NCBI GenBank assembly: GCA_016183305.1
Contig: JACPEW010000006.1
Span: forward strand, 2,317 to 66,316
DNA from: Candidatus Daviesbacteria bacterium
GTDB lineage: Bacteria; Patescibacteriota; Microgenomatia; Daviesbacterales; UBA10151
Length of the DNA stretch: 64,000 nt
Direction: 5' to 3'
The number at the start of each line of letters is the position of its first letter. Positions within the stretch are counted from its first letter, which is position 1. The position numbers were made by a program, and so were the translations under genes. The notes under the pieces are model-generated. The model saw nothing but the letters and a program-made list of their open reading frames with translations. It searched no databases and was not told the DNA's origin. Shown here piece after piece: positions 8,732-33,182 of this stretch.

Positions 8732-11263
8732 GGTTGAAAAAGTCCCACCATTATTATCTTCTAATGTAACTGTAATAGTATGAGAACCTTTATCTCCCTC
8801 TGGAAACTCCACACGTAAGGCAAACTGGCCTGAGGTTTGAGTAGATTTTTGAGCCCCATCAATTAACCAGGTAACTTTTTTAACTCCAGCAGGAGAATTT
8901 ACAGAAGCTAACACATCAAAAACTCTAGGCACATTGGCCCCGTTATTAACATTAACAATCTGAATAGCTCCGCCACCACCAGCAGTAAAACCCGGAATAC
9001 CAGAACAGCCTTTTGTTACACTAACTAATCTTGCATCCGGCGCTGTTAAAACCCACTGGTCTATTCCTATTTGCCATTTATCAGCTCCTGTAGGATCATC
9101 TTCTTTCAAAACTATCACATCTTTTTCCTCATTATCCTCATTATCATTGGCTAACCTGTGAGGATTGCTTTTGCAAACCTTTTGGCGTTGATAAGCGCTT
9201 GACTCTCCCTTAGGCTCTGTCCCCACAATAAAATATTCTTTCCTGGTAGGGGAACTACTGTGTGGCTTACCATTCATTAACCCATCAACTTCAACTTGGA
9301 TAACATTATCTGGTTTTTGGAAAGGCTCATTTTGCTTACCCTGTAAAGCAGCCACCATAATTTTATTCCAAATAGGTGAGGCTCCTGTGACTCCTGAGGC
9401 TACTGTTGAACTCATATCAGAATTATCATTGTTACCAACCCAAACTCCTACCGCAGCAGATAATGTGTAACCCACAGCCCAGTTATCTTTCTTCTGATCA
9501 GTGGTACCAGTTTTTACAGCTACAGTTTTACCTGGTATATTTAAAATAGAATTTGATCCAAAAGCTGCAGTCCTTGCCCCATTATCAGACAAAATATCAG
9601 AAATTATATATGCAATCCCAGGCTCCAAAACTTTTTTACCCTCTGACTGCCTAAACTCAAAAAGAGTTTTACCTTTACTATCTGTTACTTTCAAAATAGA
9701 GATAGGATCAAACTGACGGCCATTATTGGCAAATACTCCATAAGCAGAAACTAAATCCAATAACCTAACCTCCCTTCCTCCCAAAACTAAGCTTAAACCA
9801 ACTGAAGAAACATTTTCTGGGATAGGCTCCCAGGTAGTCAGTCCCATCCTAAATCCTAAATCCATTACATCCTTCACTCCTACTAAAGCTAAATTTTTAA
9901 CTGCTGGGATATTGTATGAATTACCCAAAGCATACCTCATCTGGACTGGCCCCCTAAACTGACCATCGTAGTTTACCGGAATATAAGAGGGCTTATCACC
10001 ACCAGGGAATTCTGTCTTAACATCAATATAAGTTTGGTTTGCAGTATAACCTTTTTCCAAAGCTTTAGAGTAGGCAATAGGTTTGGTAGCAGAACCTGGT
10101 TGCCTGGGGCTAATTGCCACATTAACATTTGGTTCAAAAGTACAACTATCTCCTTCTATGCAACCCTCAGGCAGAGAATCTCCAAAATAATCTTTGCTTC
10201 CTACCATAGAAAGAATCTGGCCTGTTTTAGGGTCTAAAACCAAAGCTGCAGCATTCCCAACCTTAGCTGAAGCCAAACTGTCAACTTCTTTTTTAACAAT
10301 TTCTTCAGCCTTTTTTTGCAAGTCATAATCTAAAGTGGTAGTTACTCTTAAGCCTCCGCCTTCAACCATTCTGCTGCCAAATTGTTCTATTAGTTTTTCT
10401 TTAACATACAAAACAAAATGAGGGGCTTTAAAACCTTGTTCGCTTTTGCTGGTTCTGTAAGTCAACTGCTCTTCTACAGCAACTTTGGCTTGTCCTTTAG
10501 TAATATATTTATCTTCTGCCATCCTGTTTAAAACTTCTTTTTGTCTTACCCGGGCAAGCTCAGGACGGGTACCATAAGGGGAATAAACTGAAGGCATTTG
10601 GGGTAGTCCAGCCAGTAGACTGGCTTCAGATAAATCTAAATCTTTAGCAGATTTCCCAAAATATAAATTAGCTGCTGCTTCAATCCCATAAGCAGTCCCT
10701 CCATAAGGAATCTCATTAAGATACATCTCTAAAATCTCATCTTTGCTGTAAGTCCGCTCAACTTGGATAGCTAAGATAAATTCTTTGAGCTTTCTGGTTA
10801 AAGTCCTTTCTCCGGAAAGCAAAGCATTTTTAACCAGCTGCTGGGTTAGGGTAGAACCTCCTCCTTCAACCTTACGGTGAACTACTAAATCAAAAACTGC
10901 CCTGCCAATACCAACAATAGAAAAACCTCCATGTTTATAAAAATCCTTGTCCTCAATTGCCAACGTGGCTTCTTTCACATAGTCAGGAACCTCTGAAAGC
11001 TTTACAGGAGTCCTGTTTTGTTCATGGTAAATATCATAAAGTAACTCCCCATTCTTATCATAAATTTTAGTAGCCTGGGCTATTTCCCTGTTAGTTAAAT
11101 CAGAAGGGGAGGGGATTTGGGTAGCAAAAAACACCACAGCGCTAAAAAGCAGAAGCAAAAAACCAACTACCCCTATTAAAATCCCAGTAGATAAATTTGA
11201 TAAGAGTTTAAACTTCCAAAGCTTTCTGCTTTCTTTTCTAACCCTCCAAGAACCATGGACCAT
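8705..11263 (-). CDS. class A penicillin-binding protein (PBP1A-type transglycosylase/transpeptidase) with C-terminal extension
   Basis: GT51 motifs EDKDFYKHGG, GGSTLTQQ; transpeptidase SATKP, SYN, KTGTT; N-terminal TM. Confidence 0.92.
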   Translation of the reverse strand: MVHGSWRVRKESRKLWKFKLLSNLSTGILIGVVGFLLLLFSAVVFFATQIPSPSDLTNREIAQATKIYDKNGELLYDIYHEQNRTPVKLSEVPDYVKEATLAIEDKDFYKHGGFSIVGIGRAVFDLVVHRKVEGGGSTLTQQLVKNALLSGERTLTRKLKEFILAIQVERTYSKDEILEMYLNEIPYGGTAYGIEAAANLYFGKSAKDLDLSEASLLAGLPQMPSVYSPYGTRPELARVRQKEVLNRMAEDKYITKGQAKVAVEEQLTYRTSKSEQGFKAPHFVLYVKEKLIEQFGSRMVEGGGLRVTTTLDYDLQKKAEEIVKKEVDSLASAKVGNAAALVLDPKTGQILSMVGSKDYFGDSLPEGCIEGDSCTFEPNVNVAISPRQPGSATKPIAYSKALEKGYTANQTYIDVKTEFPGGDKPSYIPVNYDGQFRGPVQMRYALGNSYNIPAVKNLALVGVKDVMDLGFRMGLTTWEPIPENVSSVGLSLVLGGREVRLLDLVSAYGVFANNGRQFDPISILKVTDSKGKTLFEFRQSEGKKVLEPGIAYIISDILSDNGARTAAFGSNSILNIPGKTVAVKTGTTDQKKDNWAVGYTLSAAVGVWVGNNDNSDMSSTVASGVTGASPIWNKIMVAALQGKQNEPFQKPDNVIQVEVDGLMNGKPHSSSPTRKEYFIVGTEPKGESSAYQRQKVCKSNPHRLANDNEDNEEKDVIVLKEDDPTGADKWQIGIDQWVLTAPDARLVSVTKGCSGIPGFTAGGGGAIQIVNVNNGANVPRVFDVLASVNSPAGVKKVTWLIDGAQKSTQTSGQFALRVEFPEGDKGSHTITVTLEDNNGGTFSTSIGVTVAL

Positions 11264-13128: not shown

Positions 13129-13211
13129 CCAGAGGTACCCAAGTGGCCAACGGGGGCTGACTGTAAATCAGCTGGTTTATACCTTCGAAGGTTCGAATCC
13201 TTCCCTCTGGA
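13129..13211 (+). tRNA. tRNA-Tyr (anticodon GUA), long variable arm, C1:G72
   Basis: Acceptor CCAGAGG/CCTCTGG, D arm CCCA-AGTGGCCAAC-GGGG, anticodon arm GCTGA-CTGTAAA-TCAGC, variable arm TGGTTTATACCTTC, T arm GAAGG-TTCGAAT-CCTTC, A73. Confidence 0.9.
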
Positions 13212-13245
13212 CATTGTAAAGTTTGGCTAGTTTTCCTGGACAAAT

Positions 13246-29436: not shown

Positions 29437-30114
29437 TTAATCATCAGCGTCAATTAACAATTTAGAAAGAGCAGGGCTATCAACTTCAGTTTCCTCCACA
29501 AAAGACTGATAAGTTAAATTAGGGTTAGTTTTAGAAAAGTAAGAAGAGATAAGATTTGTATCACAAAATGGATGCGGTTCTCCTGATAAATAATAAGGAT
29601 ATGAGGAATATGGATAAAATCTATGTTCCCACATCGGAAGTGGGAAGCTGTTTCTATGGATATATTTTGATAAATGAAGTAAGTACTCATCTGTCTCAAT
29701 TAGCTTTGCCTTAAATCCACCCTGAAATAAAGAACCTACTCTCTTGTGTCTGGTATTGAAATACCGAGTGTAACTATCTGCCACTTTCCTTAAAAATTCT
29801 GATATACCTCCATCAGCCAATTGTTGAATTAGCAAATGAAAATGATTCGGCATTAAACAGTAACAATATATCCTCACCAGCTCTGTTTGATTATCTATCT
29901 TTTTAAGCTTTATCACACCTCTTCTGAAATCTGAAAGCTTCATTGGAACCGGAGATTTACGGTAATAGTCCAAAGTTTCTAAAAACCTTAGGTGGTCCCA
30001 TCTGTCCATAAAGGTCTTCCTTTTCTCAACACCGCGGTTATAAATATGGTAAAAGCTGCCACTAATAAATGGGGGATTAACCACGCTTCTATTGTCTAAT
30101 CCGTATTCCCACAC
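29437..30114 (-). CDS. REP-associated tyrosine transposase (RAYT; IS200/IS605 TnpA-like Y1 HUH enzyme)
   Basis: YHIYNRG, HUH motif LMPNHFHLLI, Tyr motif SKYIHRN; 225 aa. Confidence 0.75.
   Translation of the reverse strand: MWEYGLDNRSVVNPPFISGSFYHIYNRGVEKRKTFMDRWDHLRFLETLDYYRKSPVPMKLSDFRRGVIKLKKIDNQTELVRIYCYCLMPNHFHLLIQQLADGGISEFLRKVADSYTRYFNTRHKRVGSLFQGGFKAKLIETDEYLLHLSKYIHRNSFPLPMWEHRFYPYSSYPYYLSGEPHPFCDTNLISSYFSKTNPNLTYQSFVEETEVDSPALSKLLIDADD
29621..29650 (+). repeat. R1 REP hairpin inside the RAYT CDS
   Basis: TTCCCAC ATCGGAA GTGGGAA GCTG; reads SFPLPMWE immediately after YIHRN. Confidence 0.8.
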
Positions 30115-30410: not shown

Positions 30411-31982
30411 TTAATCCAACTTTTCCCTTTGGGTTCTGAGGAATGAAAACCATTGTTCAAAGAAGGCAAAGATTCCTTTAAATGGAGTCTCAATTATAAA
30501 GTCAAAAACAAACAAAAGAATATTTATTTGGGAGATAGCTAAAGTTAACCTTCTTCCTACTTGAATAAAAGGCATAAAGAAAAAGTCAAAAGCAAGTGAG
30601 CCAAAATTATCTTTTTTCTTTTTGATAATATACATATTAGCTGTCCTGTTAATCCTGTAACTGACAAAAGATACTATTGCCAGGAAAAAGACAAATACTC
30701 CTTGGGAGAAAGGATTTACATGAAGCTTAGTCAAGATAAAAACTATTGATCCCAGACTAACAGCAAATGTAAACAGCCAAAGTACTACAAACATTCCCCA
30801 AAGCATTGGATCAGTTTTTTTAGGTTTTTTCCTGACTACCAAAGGCTCACTTAACTGGGGATCCCCGTCATATAAAATAGTATTTATTTTCTTTAGGATT
30901 TTTAAGGAATTTTCCCTGGTTGGAGTTTTTATTAAAAATCCTACCCCAATCATCAAAGTTGGAGGAGTAAAGATATTAATTAAGATAGATGACCAAATTG
31001 TCCTGCCATAAAAAAATCTTTCAAAAGCTCCTTCTATAAATAAAGCGAATAAGGCTTTTGTTACAAATATAAAAATCACACTTCTGACAATTGCTCTTCT
31101 GACTTTGCTTGAGATATTTTTATAGCGGGCGCTACAATCTGCAATCACTTCTGAATTTAATAAATCTTCATCAGCCACCAGTGAAGAAGTCTTACCACGG
31201 TATTTTCTTAAAACATCATCCAAAATCAGAAAAGGAATGCTTTGCTTTTTAATGTAGGTATAAATCCTGTCTTTTGCTGGATACTTAAATTGGGTTTCTA
31301 TTTGTTTAATAGCCTCAGGAAAATGGTTAGCAACCCGTTCTAAATTATGTTCATTTAAACCTTCAAAATATTGTTTAAATAAGTGGTAGCGCAAAAAAGC
31401 TAAATCATCATTAGCATATGCTCTTCTTACAGCAATAAAAACTTGGACATCCCGGATTTGCTCATCATCATCAGAAATAGCAACTCTGTCTCTGAAAATC
31501 CTAAACATAAAATTGCTCATAATATCTTTAGGATCATTAGGCTTTAAAATATGTTCTATCTCAGAAGATAAAAGATGTAAAACCCACTCATTAACCAAAC
31601 CTTTATTAATCCTGTGTTTAACATTTACTTTTTCTTCTAACTTTAAATACAAGTCTGTTTGTTCTGCTACTTTGGTAATTTGAGACTCAGGAATTGTGGA
31701 ATCAGGAAAATAACGGGCCCAAATCAACTCCCTTATTAAAGGAGCAGCGATTGATTGACCATCCCCACCCAGCATCAGTCTTCTTTTTAAAATCCTTTCA
31801 ATTGTGGAACGCAGGATTACCTCATCTTCCCTATAATCCATTGCTGTCCTAAACTTTTCATACCAGGTAGCCAGTTCTGCCACCAAAGGATTAACAGAAA
31901 TAGTTTTATCATGGTTGGGAATAGCTGCCCTGTCATATGCTGTTACCAAGGCTGTGGATAATTTATTTAATGTTTTAGCCAT
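30411..31982 (-). CDS. hypothetical polytopic membrane protein (523 aa)
   Basis: Soluble helical N-terminal half, 5-6 TM C-terminal half. Start moved to ATG 31982 because the 22 codons upstream are R2-repeat sequence. Confidence 0.5.
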   Translation of the reverse strand: MAKTLNKLSTALVTAYDRAAIPNHDKTISVNPLVAELATWYEKFRTAMDYREDEVILRSTIERILKRRLMLGGDGQSIAAPLIRELIWARYFPDSTIPESQITKVAEQTDLYLKLEEKVNVKHRINKGLVNEWVLHLLSSEIEHILKPNDPKDIMSNFMFRIFRDRVAISDDDEQIRDVQVFIAVRRAYANDDLAFLRYHLFKQYFEGLNEHNLERVANHFPEAIKQIETQFKYPAKDRIYTYIKKQSIPFLILDDVLRKYRGKTSSLVADEDLLNSEVIADCSARYKNISSKVRRAIVRSVIFIFVTKALFALFIEGAFERFFYGRTIWSSILINIFTPPTLMIGVGFLIKTPTRENSLKILKKINTILYDGDPQLSEPLVVRKKPKKTDPMLWGMFVVLWLFTFAVSLGSIVFILTKLHVNPFSQGVFVFFLAIVSFVSYRINRTANMYIIKKKKDNFGSLAFDFFFMPFIQVGRRLTLAISQINILLFVFDFIIETPFKGIFAFFEQWFSFLRTQREKLD

Positions 31983-32016
31983 TTGATGTACTATGATAAT
32001 ATTAACACAGTCCATT

Positions 32017-32041
32017 GTCATCCCAGACTTGATCTGGAATC
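32017..32041 (+). repeat. R2 unit in tyrS divergent intergenic region
   Basis: GTCATCCCAGACTTGATCTGGAATC. Confidence 0.7.
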
Positions 32042-32060
32042 TGTGCAAAGTAATTTATTT

Positions 32061-33182
32061 ATGACTACTGATGAGAAAATAAAGCTAATTACCAGAAATC
32101 TGGAGGAAGTTTTAACCGAAGAAGAGTTAAAGGCCTTAATAGAATCAGGTACCCCTTTAAAACACTACATTGGTTTTGAAATCTCTGGAAAACTGCATAT
32201 TGGTTCTTTATTTACTTTGATGAAAGTAAAAGACTTACAAGATGCTGGGGCAGAAACAGTTATTTGGATGGCAGACCTTCACTCAGCAATTAATGATAAA
32301 TTGGATGGAAATTTAGAAACTATTAAGAAAGTAGCAGATGAATATTTTAAAGAGGCAATGAAAGCTTTGTTTACTTGTATTGGCGGAGATCCAGAAAAAC
32401 TTATTTTTAAATTAACCTCTCAAACTTATGCTCAAAATCCAGACTTTTGGCTAACACTTTTAGAAATTGGCAAAACAACCACACTAGCTCGCACTAAAAG
32501 ATCTATTACCATTATGGGTAGGGAAGGCTCTGATGATAGCATGCCGACTGATAAACTCTTTTATCCTATTATGCAAGCAGCAGATATTTTTCTTTTAGGA
32601 GCCAACATTGCTCATGCTGGAATTGATCAAAGAAAAGTACATGTAATAGCCAAAGACGCTGCCATGCAAGTTAAAACCTTTCCTTTAAAAGATACCCAAG
32701 GGAATAAAATCAAGCCAGTAGCTATTCATCACCCTATCTTGCTCAGCCTTAGTGGACCAGTAAGCGCTGGAGGAGAGGCTGATGAAGCAGCAATGAAAAA
32801 TAAAATGAGTAAATCTAAACCAGGCAGCGGGATAACAATTCATGATACTCCTGAACAAATCAAAGTAAATATTAATCAGGCCTATGCTCCTGAAGGAGTT
32901 ATAGAAGGGAATCCTGTTTTAAATTGGACAAGATATTTAATTTTTTATGGCAATAATTCCAGCTTAACTGTCACCAGGGATCCAAAATGGGGAGGGGATT
33001 TAACTTATACCTCATATGAGGATTTAGAAAAGGATTATGTAGAAAGAAAACTCCATCCTCAGGACCTAAAAATGGCAGTAGCAGAGTGGCTAATTGCTAA
33101 GCTAAAACCAGCAAGAATTTATTTTGAAGACCCTAAAGGAAAAGCAGCTTTAGCAGAAATAGAAAGGCTAACCAAAAAGTAA
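32061..33182 (+). CDS. tyrS: tyrosyl-tRNA synthetase, archaeal/eukaryotic type
   Basis: By-eye colinear match to M. jannaschii TyrRS: YIGFEISGKLHIGS, MADLHSAIN, YPIMQAADI, KMSKSK, VIEGNPV, KWGGDLTYTSYEDLE, KLHPQDLKMAVAE. Start set at ATG 32061. Confidence 0.85.
   Translation: MTTDEKIKLITRNLEEVLTEEELKALIESGTPLKHYIGFEISGKLHIGSLFTLMKVKDLQDAGAETVIWMADLHSAINDKLDGNLETIKKVADEYFKEAMKALFTCIGGDPEKLIFKLTSQTYAQNPDFWLTLLEIGKTTTLARTKRSITIMGREGSDDSMPTDKLFYPIMQAADIFLLGANIAHAGIDQRKVHVIAKDAAMQVKTFPLKDTQGNKIKPVAIHHPILLSLSGPVSAGGEADEAAMKNKMSKSKPGSGITIHDTPEQIKVNINQAYAPEGVIEGNPVLNWTRYLIFYGNNSSLTVTRDPKWGGDLTYTSYEDLEKDYVERKLHPQDLKMAVAEWLIAKLKPARIYFEDPKGKAALAEIERLTKK

Follow-up and report, generated by a model that had tools for sequence, protein, structure and literature searches.

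The window, a stretch of 64,000 nucleotides from the genome of a small, groundwater-type bacterium of the Candidatus Daviesbacteria, carries at positions 32061–33182 of the plus strand the gene tyrS for an archaeal/eukaryal-type tyrosyl-tRNA synthetase (TyrRS) of 373 aa, identified by NF006330, PF00579 and PDB matches. We consider it very probable that the product is the working, likely sole TyrRS of its host, that it was acquired horizontally and displaced the bacterial TyrS, and that the resident tRNA-Tyr has adapted to it. The first base pair of tRNA-Tyr, G1:C72 in Bacteria and C1:G72 in Archaea and Eukarya, has long been a textbook identity rule parting the two sides and was thought to block the transfer of TyrRS between them; these bacteria show that the barrier can be crossed by flipping one base pair in a resident tRNA. 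The phenomenon is already known and was published in 2017 for Daviesbacteria, in a study that described archaea/eukarya-type TyrRS together with C1-G72 tRNA-Tyr in Parcubacteria, Microgenomates, Dojkabacteria and Katanobacteria and proposed that the enzyme had been acquired independently several times, with DPANN archaea as the probable source (Mukai, Reynolds, Crnkovic and Soll 2017, Life 7:8, PMC5370408). In the same study Daviesbacteria count as one of the “major bacterial groups” that have such an enzyme, and it reports that the C1-G72 tRNA-Tyr of these candidate phyla radiation (CPR) bacteria often keeps the variable arm and is hence of bacterial descent (PMC5370408). The window presents the same phenomenon in the same lineage and is no different in substance; as the point was made in 2017, it adds a further example and counts, but no new principle. 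The counts that we add are 89 of 96 genomes in the order and 62 of 301 in a sample of the class, together with two relatives that carry both types of enzyme.

Translation of the gene gave an uninterrupted frame of 373 codons from the ATG at 32061. A TTG at 31983 gives a longer form on paper, and the ATG was preferred because residue 3, counted from it, is where alignments to solved TyrRS structures start. Against NF006330, the NCBIfam model of archaeal-type TyrRS (PRK08560), the protein scored 386.3 bits with a cut-off of 220 and covered model positions 1–337 of 342, while residues 31–348 matched PF00579, the family of class I W/Y synthetases (E = 1.4e-39). PF00579 was the only family in the Pfam scan of the protein, in which no S4 domain was found, and the bacterial-type TyrRS of a relative (G080), used as a positive control, did show the S4 domain PF01479. 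With the general tyrS model TIGR00234 the protein reached 114.2 bits, just above a cut-off (113.8) that does not discriminate between TyrRS types and is also passed by all four archaeal control genomes; the types were told apart by their TIGR00234 score classes, about 85–143 bits for archaeal-type and 307–361 bits for bacterial-type enzymes. A search of all PDB chains returned 2CYC as the best match (E = 9.6e-103), whose 375 aa align end to end with the 373 aa of the window TyrRS, followed by 2CYA, 7FG6, 2CYB and 1J1U (1e-56), with the bacterial TyrRS 1H3E as a weak match (E = 5.3e-9). Passages of PMC2831299 identify 2CYC, 2CYB and 1J1U as the TyrRS of Pyrococcus horikoshii, Archaeoglobus fulgidus and Methanocaldococcus jannaschii (Mj), respectively. 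Two other identities were tried and rejected on model scores and on both trees described below: that of a bacterial TyrS/TyrZ, and that of a tryptophanyl-tRNA synthetase (TrpRS), the models of which stayed far under their cut-offs (TIGR00233, 83.3 bits with a cut-off of 176.75).

Conserved residues suggest how the enzyme works and what it reads. Residues 6–352 aligned to positions 3–303 of the 306-residue 1J1U chain. In this alignment the tyrosine pocket is kept, with Tyr36, Gln172 and Asp175 at the places of Mj Tyr32, Gln155 and Asp158, and so are His332 and Asp335, which match Mj His283 and Asp286, whereas Trp310 replaces Mj Phe261; we take these three Mj residues to be the anticodon-binding residues of 1J1U. 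The KMSKS loop is intact at residues 248–252 (32802–32816, plus strand), as seen in the translation and the alignments, and the class I “HIGH” signature reads HIGS at residues 46–49 (32196–32207, plus strand), aligning to HLGT in 2CYC and HLGH in 1J1U. On these grounds the window TyrRS is predicted to be catalytically active. Arg147, Arg191 and Lys192 occupy the places of Mj Arg132, Arg174 and Lys175, of which, according to excerpts of PMC1934993, Arg174 reads C1 directly, Arg132 does so via water and Lys175 reads G72. To judge from these residues, the window TyrRS, without the S4 domain by which bacterial enzymes read the long variable arm, would recognise its tRNA by C1:G72 and A73 at the acceptor end and by the GUA anticodon. 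The earlier note on this DNA had described a protein colinear with M. jannaschii TyrRS, with the tyrosine-binding Tyr of HYIGFE (Tyr36) and Asp of MQAADI (Asp175), a KMSKS loop and no S4-like C-terminal domain, and each part of that description held, colinearity over the whole 1J1U chain.

The only tRNA-Tyr found in the host genome also lies in the window, 18.8 kb upstream of tyrS at 13129–13212 of the plus strand. It is a tRNA-Tyr(GUA) of 84 nt (ARAGORN; Rfam RF00005, 54.3 bits) with C1:G72, C2:G71, A73 and a long variable arm with a 3-bp stem, and thus carries the archaeal identity set (C1:G72, A73) on a bacterial long-variable-arm body. The host tRNA-Trp has the bacterial discriminator G73, and therefore the tyrosine system alone has been swapped. 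All 30 tRNA-Tyr loci recovered by ARAGORN in the order (83–88 nt, with flanking bases in four) had C1:G72 and A73, among them that of G086, a genome with no assembled TyrRS; the tRNA-Tyr of G034 and G016 likewise had C1:G72 and A73. Outside the order, genomes with an archaeal-type TyrRS showed C1:G72 in 5/5 cases from families f9 and f39 and in 5/5 from f23, f36, f24 and f4. The total was 42/42 for the archaeal-type relatives, 41 of them with an assembled archaeal-type gene, as against G1:C72 in 7/7 members of the class with a bacterial TyrRS (307–361 bits), counts that cover the recovered tRNAs only, since many genomes yielded none. The covariation of the enzyme with the 1:72 pair, raised in the earlier note, is therefore borne out.

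Alignment of the 30 homologues showed that the first two acceptor pairs are invariant, while compensatory changes preserve the stem of the variable arm (for pair 48:53, GC in 22, CG in four, UA in three and UG in one) and double changes occur in 12 of the 23 predicted pairs. Recovery of the tRNAs depended on the search: BLAST of the window tRNA-Tyr over the order gave matches in 48 of the 96 genomes, and a pattern of 11 bases from the anticodon arm, which had hits in 19 of 40 chosen genomes, with 7 of its 22 hits not being tRNAs, missed tRNA-Tyr with other anticodon stems that were later found beside the TyrRS gene. No CCA is encoded in the window tRNA-Tyr, and this was the usual state in the family, where 26 of the 30 ARAGORN sequences end “...GGAC” and four continue “ACCA”. 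In several Microgenomatia a C1:G72 tRNA-Tyr was also seen close upstream of the archaeal-type TyrRS gene, at 145 nt in G016, 43 nt in G117 and 270 nt in G240, all with a long variable arm, and at about 1.1–1.4 kb in G294 and G299, whose tRNA-Tyr is short (73 and 76 nt). The tRNA-Tyr loci located near archaeal-type TyrRS genes are L093 1271–1355, L083 2602–2687, L102 2854–2936, L089 3988–4063 and L101 347–419.

The archaeal-type TyrRS is fixed in the Daviesbacteria lineage. The GTDB order of the window, here a single family of 96 genomes in 63 genera, had the enzyme above the cut-off in 89 genomes, and the single-contig genomes G040, G071 and G072 had the archaeal type only; in the other seven genomes, 80–93% complete, no TyrRS of either kind was detected at the thresholds used. 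A bacterial-type TyrRS (>300 bits) was not found in 94 of the 96 genomes, which include 100%-complete and single-contig ones. The remaining two, G034 and G080, carry such a gene (L042, 1486–2706, and L043, 1489–2718, respectively; each at about 314 bits, with products of 406 and 409 aa that share 66% identity, and with an S4 domain seen in G080) besides the archaeal type, and a search with a 10-base pattern, which is not a full tRNA scan, found only C1:G72 tRNA-Tyr in both. In G080 the two TyrRS types are on one contig. Across an even sample of the class the distribution was patchy, with the archaeal type in 62 of 301 genomes: 19/19 in family f1, 18/18 in f24, 12/14 in f9, 3/8 in f4 and few in others. 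In the host genome itself (940 kb, 28 contigs, with the window on contig 9, rated 85% complete), PF00579 had two matches, the window TyrRS and a 337-aa bacterial TrpRS (TIGR00233, 296.7 bits), and thus no bacterial-type TyrRS, tyrS or tyrZ, was among the matches of this 85%-complete assembly. Because of that level of completeness, the claim of a sole enzyme rests on the relatives.

Phylogenetic analysis placed the window TyrRS among archaeal and eukaryal types, far from bacterial TyrRS and TrpRS, which agrees with the archaeal/eukaryal affiliation proposed in the earlier note. A quick tree of 111 rows, with bacterial TyrRS and TrpRS as outgroups, had it deep among the archaeal-type rows. A careful tree of 60 rows and 377 columns was computed under LG+C20+F+G4 by posterior mean site frequencies (PMSF), for which two distant outgroups and 51 other rows of the 111 were dropped and nine named or high-GC (guanine plus cytosine) rows added; its root on two Woesearchaeota rows serves for drawing only. 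Both trees are without named Thermococcales or M. jannaschii sequences, and 2CYC was not placed; taxon names were available for 4 of the 20 nearest clusters (Brassica, “archaeon”, Micrarchaeota and Nanopusillaceae). In the 60-row tree the family of the window forms a clade (support 100/98), and a 98/93 clade of 40 rows encloses this family together with an “archaeon” and a Nanopusillaceae archaeon, with a Micrarchaeota row just outside; DPANN archaea are plausible relatives of this TyrRS type. Row L025, entered as f1 without evidence, fell outside the family clade, and its label carries no weight. Asgard archaea and plant TyrRS2 form a second, separate clade (100/100) together with families f9 and f39, the rest of f24 and a Woesebacterium. 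The presence of two separate TyrRS clades in the class indicates at least two acquisitions of the archaeal type. As to the plant protein, the Brassica “tyrosine--tRNA ligase 2, cytoplasmic” (P0125), a double-length TyrRS2 of 753 aa, is 37% identical to the window TyrRS; in the 111-row tree its two halves lie closest to one another, and its C-terminal half groups with the clade of Asgard archaea and the second set of CPR bacteria, not with that of the window.

A course of events that would account for these data, and that is well supported by comparison across genomes, begins with an ancestor of the Daviesbacteria lineage, which would have acquired an archaeal-type TyrRS by horizontal transfer; the newcomer would then have displaced the bacterial TyrS. 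The bacterial-shaped tRNA-Tyr of the lineage itself would have adapted, its first pair changing from G1:C72 to C1:G72 while the variable arm was retained. The type of the gene, its fixation in the lineage, the near-absence of a bacterial TyrRS and the covariation with the tRNA are observed; the direction of the transfer and its donor are inferred.

That an archaeal contig, for example of DPANN origin, was mis-binned into a bacterial genome, or that the assembly is chimeric, has some initial appeal, since bins of CPR and DPANN organisms, which occur together, can contaminate each other (PMC5370408), and the deeper relatives of the window TyrRS are archaeal. We regard this as next to impossible, however, in view of the surroundings of the gene. 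Downstream of tyrS lie recG, nusB, rnc (RNase III) and rpsP (S16), all confirmed by Pfam, and upstream lie a membrane-protein open reading frame (ORF) of 545 aa, an IS200-like Y1 transposase and, again confirmed by Pfam, atpB and atpF for subunits a and b of the F-type ATP synthase; GC content is even over the 64 kb, at 0.32–0.41. The nearest loci in public genomes, 48–82% identical, are named Candidatus Daviesbacteria or Microgenomates, and the gene order is kept across relatives, the membrane protein adjoining TyrRS in 20 of 27 loci and recG following in 17 of 27, although several of these loci stop at contig borders. The host is thus a CPR bacterium with tyrS in a bacterial gene context, and contamination was ruled out on that context and the conserved gene order. 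The earlier note had taken the flanks, a membrane protein and recG, for ordinary bacterial genes, and the gene for a fixed replacement instead of a contaminating contig; the Pfam assignments agree with the former, with the membrane ORF alone lacking a family, and the conserved order and the 89 of 96 genomes, three of them single contigs, agree with the latter. It is also highly improbable, in our judgement, that the window TyrRS is an auxiliary second enzyme, devoted to stress, resistance or another role, with a housekeeping bacterial TyrS hidden in the unassembled 15% of the genome. Incomplete assembly and the two relatives with both types would allow it, but the other 94 of 96 related genomes have no bacterial-type TyrRS above 300 bits, and the only tRNA-Tyr has C1:G72, a pair that is held, in excerpts of PMC1934993, to block cross-charging between bacterial and archaeal/eukaryal systems.

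Another account would trace the archaeal-type pair by vertical descent to an early ancestor of these bacteria, the bacterial TyrS being a later arrival elsewhere. Mukai et al. raise the possibility of an ancient origin of archaeal identity sets and of a transfer from bacteria to archaea (PMC5370408), and neither the 111-row nor the 60-row tree resolves root and direction. We nevertheless find this account very unlikely, since the archaeal type occurs in only 62 of 301 genomes of the class, in scattered families, and there in two unrelated TyrRS clades, and since the tRNA-Tyr keeps its class II bacterial body with the first pair alone flipped, which fits an adapted resident tRNA. Horizontal acquisition followed by displacement of the bacterial enzyme thus remains the reading we prefer, and several observations weigh against it. 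An 85%-complete host genome is by itself no proof that a bacterial TyrRS is absent, and G034 and G080 keep both enzymes, so that coexistence is possible. The genomes compared are kin and not independent, and the covariation comes down to about two to three TyrRS clades on one side and, on the other, seven families that have a bacterial TyrRS. In the 60-row tree an 88/76 polytomy joins the family of the window to other Microgenomatia (f4, f23, f32, f36 and part of f24), unnamed clusters and a high-GC clade, and no donor is singled out. Finally, in the HIGH motif of the window TyrRS, Ser takes the place of the final His; 2CYC has Thr there.

Comparison with known systems helps to place the window. 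The P. horikoshii enzyme (2CYC) is the closest in build, with 375 against 373 aa, both of the inserts described below, the C-terminal helix and a fourth HIGH residue other than His; it comes from an archaeon, however, whose tRNA-Tyr by the textbook rule is without a long variable arm (PMC5370408), whereas that of the window has one. The M. jannaschii TyrRS–tRNA-Tyr complex (1J1U) is colinear with the window TyrRS, in which its tyrosine-binding and C1:G72-reading residues are conserved; the window protein is 67 aa longer, by two inserts and a C-terminal extension, has Trp in place of Mj Phe261, and is accompanied by a tRNA whose variable arm is long. Bacterial TyrRS (TyrS/TyrZ) catalyses the same reaction on the same class Ic Rossmann core (PF00579) but has a C-terminal S4-like domain, uses a G1:C72 tRNA and binds its variable arm (PMC5370408), and the window TyrRS has no S4. 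Survival of a bacterium with an archaeal tyrosine pair is described in passages of PMC2887954, where the TyrRS–tRNA-Tyr of E. coli was replaced by an archaeal pair. In that engineered case the tRNA moved with the enzyme; here a resident, bacterial-shaped tRNA was apparently re-tuned at 1:72. Nature offers here a parallel to the orthogonal pairs of genetic-code expansion, in the form of a hybrid tRNA-Tyr with a bacterial class II body and an archaeal acceptor end.

Mukai et al. confine the phenomenon to CPR bacteria (PMC5370408), whereas we found the same TyrRS clade also on high-GC contigs with bacterial neighbours. The representative of the nearest non-CPR cluster (P0122) is 47% identical to the window TyrRS and has 120 listed homologues, some on contigs of up to 2.2 Mb; five carry taxon names, four of them Candidatus Dormibacteria, Dormibacteraeota or Dormiibacterota and one Binatia. 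When metagenomes were scanned with P0122, 80 loci (L134–L213) were retained, 40 of them with a GC content of at least 0.60, and in the 60-row tree the high-GC clade, from soil and peat contigs of 66–73% GC, was well supported. In 14 of the 40 high-GC loci a tRNA-Tyr lies 35–108 nt upstream of the TyrRS gene on the same strand, and among the 36 with at least 250 nt of upstream sequence 12 have an adjacent tRNA-Tyr. These tRNAs are 75–77 nt long, including CCA where it is encoded, and have a short variable loop, C1:G72 and A73. An example is L134, with the tRNA at 9880–9956, the TyrRS at 9974–11116 and LuxR/AAA_16, MMPL, GGDEF-EAL and DUF3048 neighbours that make up a bacterial context. A literature search, which did not extend to subscription journals and supplements, found no paper joining Dormibacter with tyrosyl-tRNA.

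It is possible, though we would put it somewhat short of an even chance, that the window TyrRS came from a lineage circulating among bacteria rather than directly from an archaeon. If so, archaeal tyrosine identity would have spread beyond CPR bacteria as a two-gene cassette of tRNA and synthetase, and Daviesbacteria would be a case in which the incoming enzyme was matched by a flipped first pair in the resident tRNA. The occurrence of the same enzyme with an archaeal-shaped tRNA on high-GC contigs of bacterial context would, if confirmed, widen the phenomenon beyond CPR bacteria.

Relative to M. jannaschii TyrRS, the window protein has two inserts, insert 1 at residues 207–218 (32679–32714, plus strand) and insert 2, just before KMSKS, at residues 233–247 (32757–32801, plus strand), set apart by a conserved block. 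The earlier note had described one extra segment of about 25 residues before KMSKS; the extra length relative to M. jannaschii stands, but it is divided between two inserts. Both occur in 2CYC, and a unique 25-residue insert was ruled out. Insert 2 was found at variable length in the solved 2CYC, 2CYA and 7FG6 and, in the 60-row alignment, in Asgard, Thermoproteota and DPANN rows. In that alignment insert 1 was patchy: the subclade of the family to which the window belongs has it, as do several further lineages of Microgenomatia and the high-GC clade, but it is missing from 8 of the 12 other family rows aligned. Judged by this alignment, the inserts are a clade feature and no peculiarity of the window TyrRS.

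Among the neighbours of tyrS, the membrane-protein ORF (30411–32048, minus strand; about 520–545 aa, multi-pass) is divergent from tyrS, and a Pfam scan of its 545 aa matched no family. Its true start is probably an ATG 22 codons inside the TTG start, near 31982. In the 20 of 27 relatives' loci where it adjoins the TyrRS gene, this membrane protein is conserved at 61–77% identity. The IS200-like Y1 transposase homologue (29437–30114, minus strand; PF01797, 4.1e-9) lies between atpB and the membrane protein, and 9 of the 27 loci have a homologue (35–84% identity) in the corresponding or a nearby position. Because of this recurrence, an active insertion seems less likely than a gene that is resident and domesticated.

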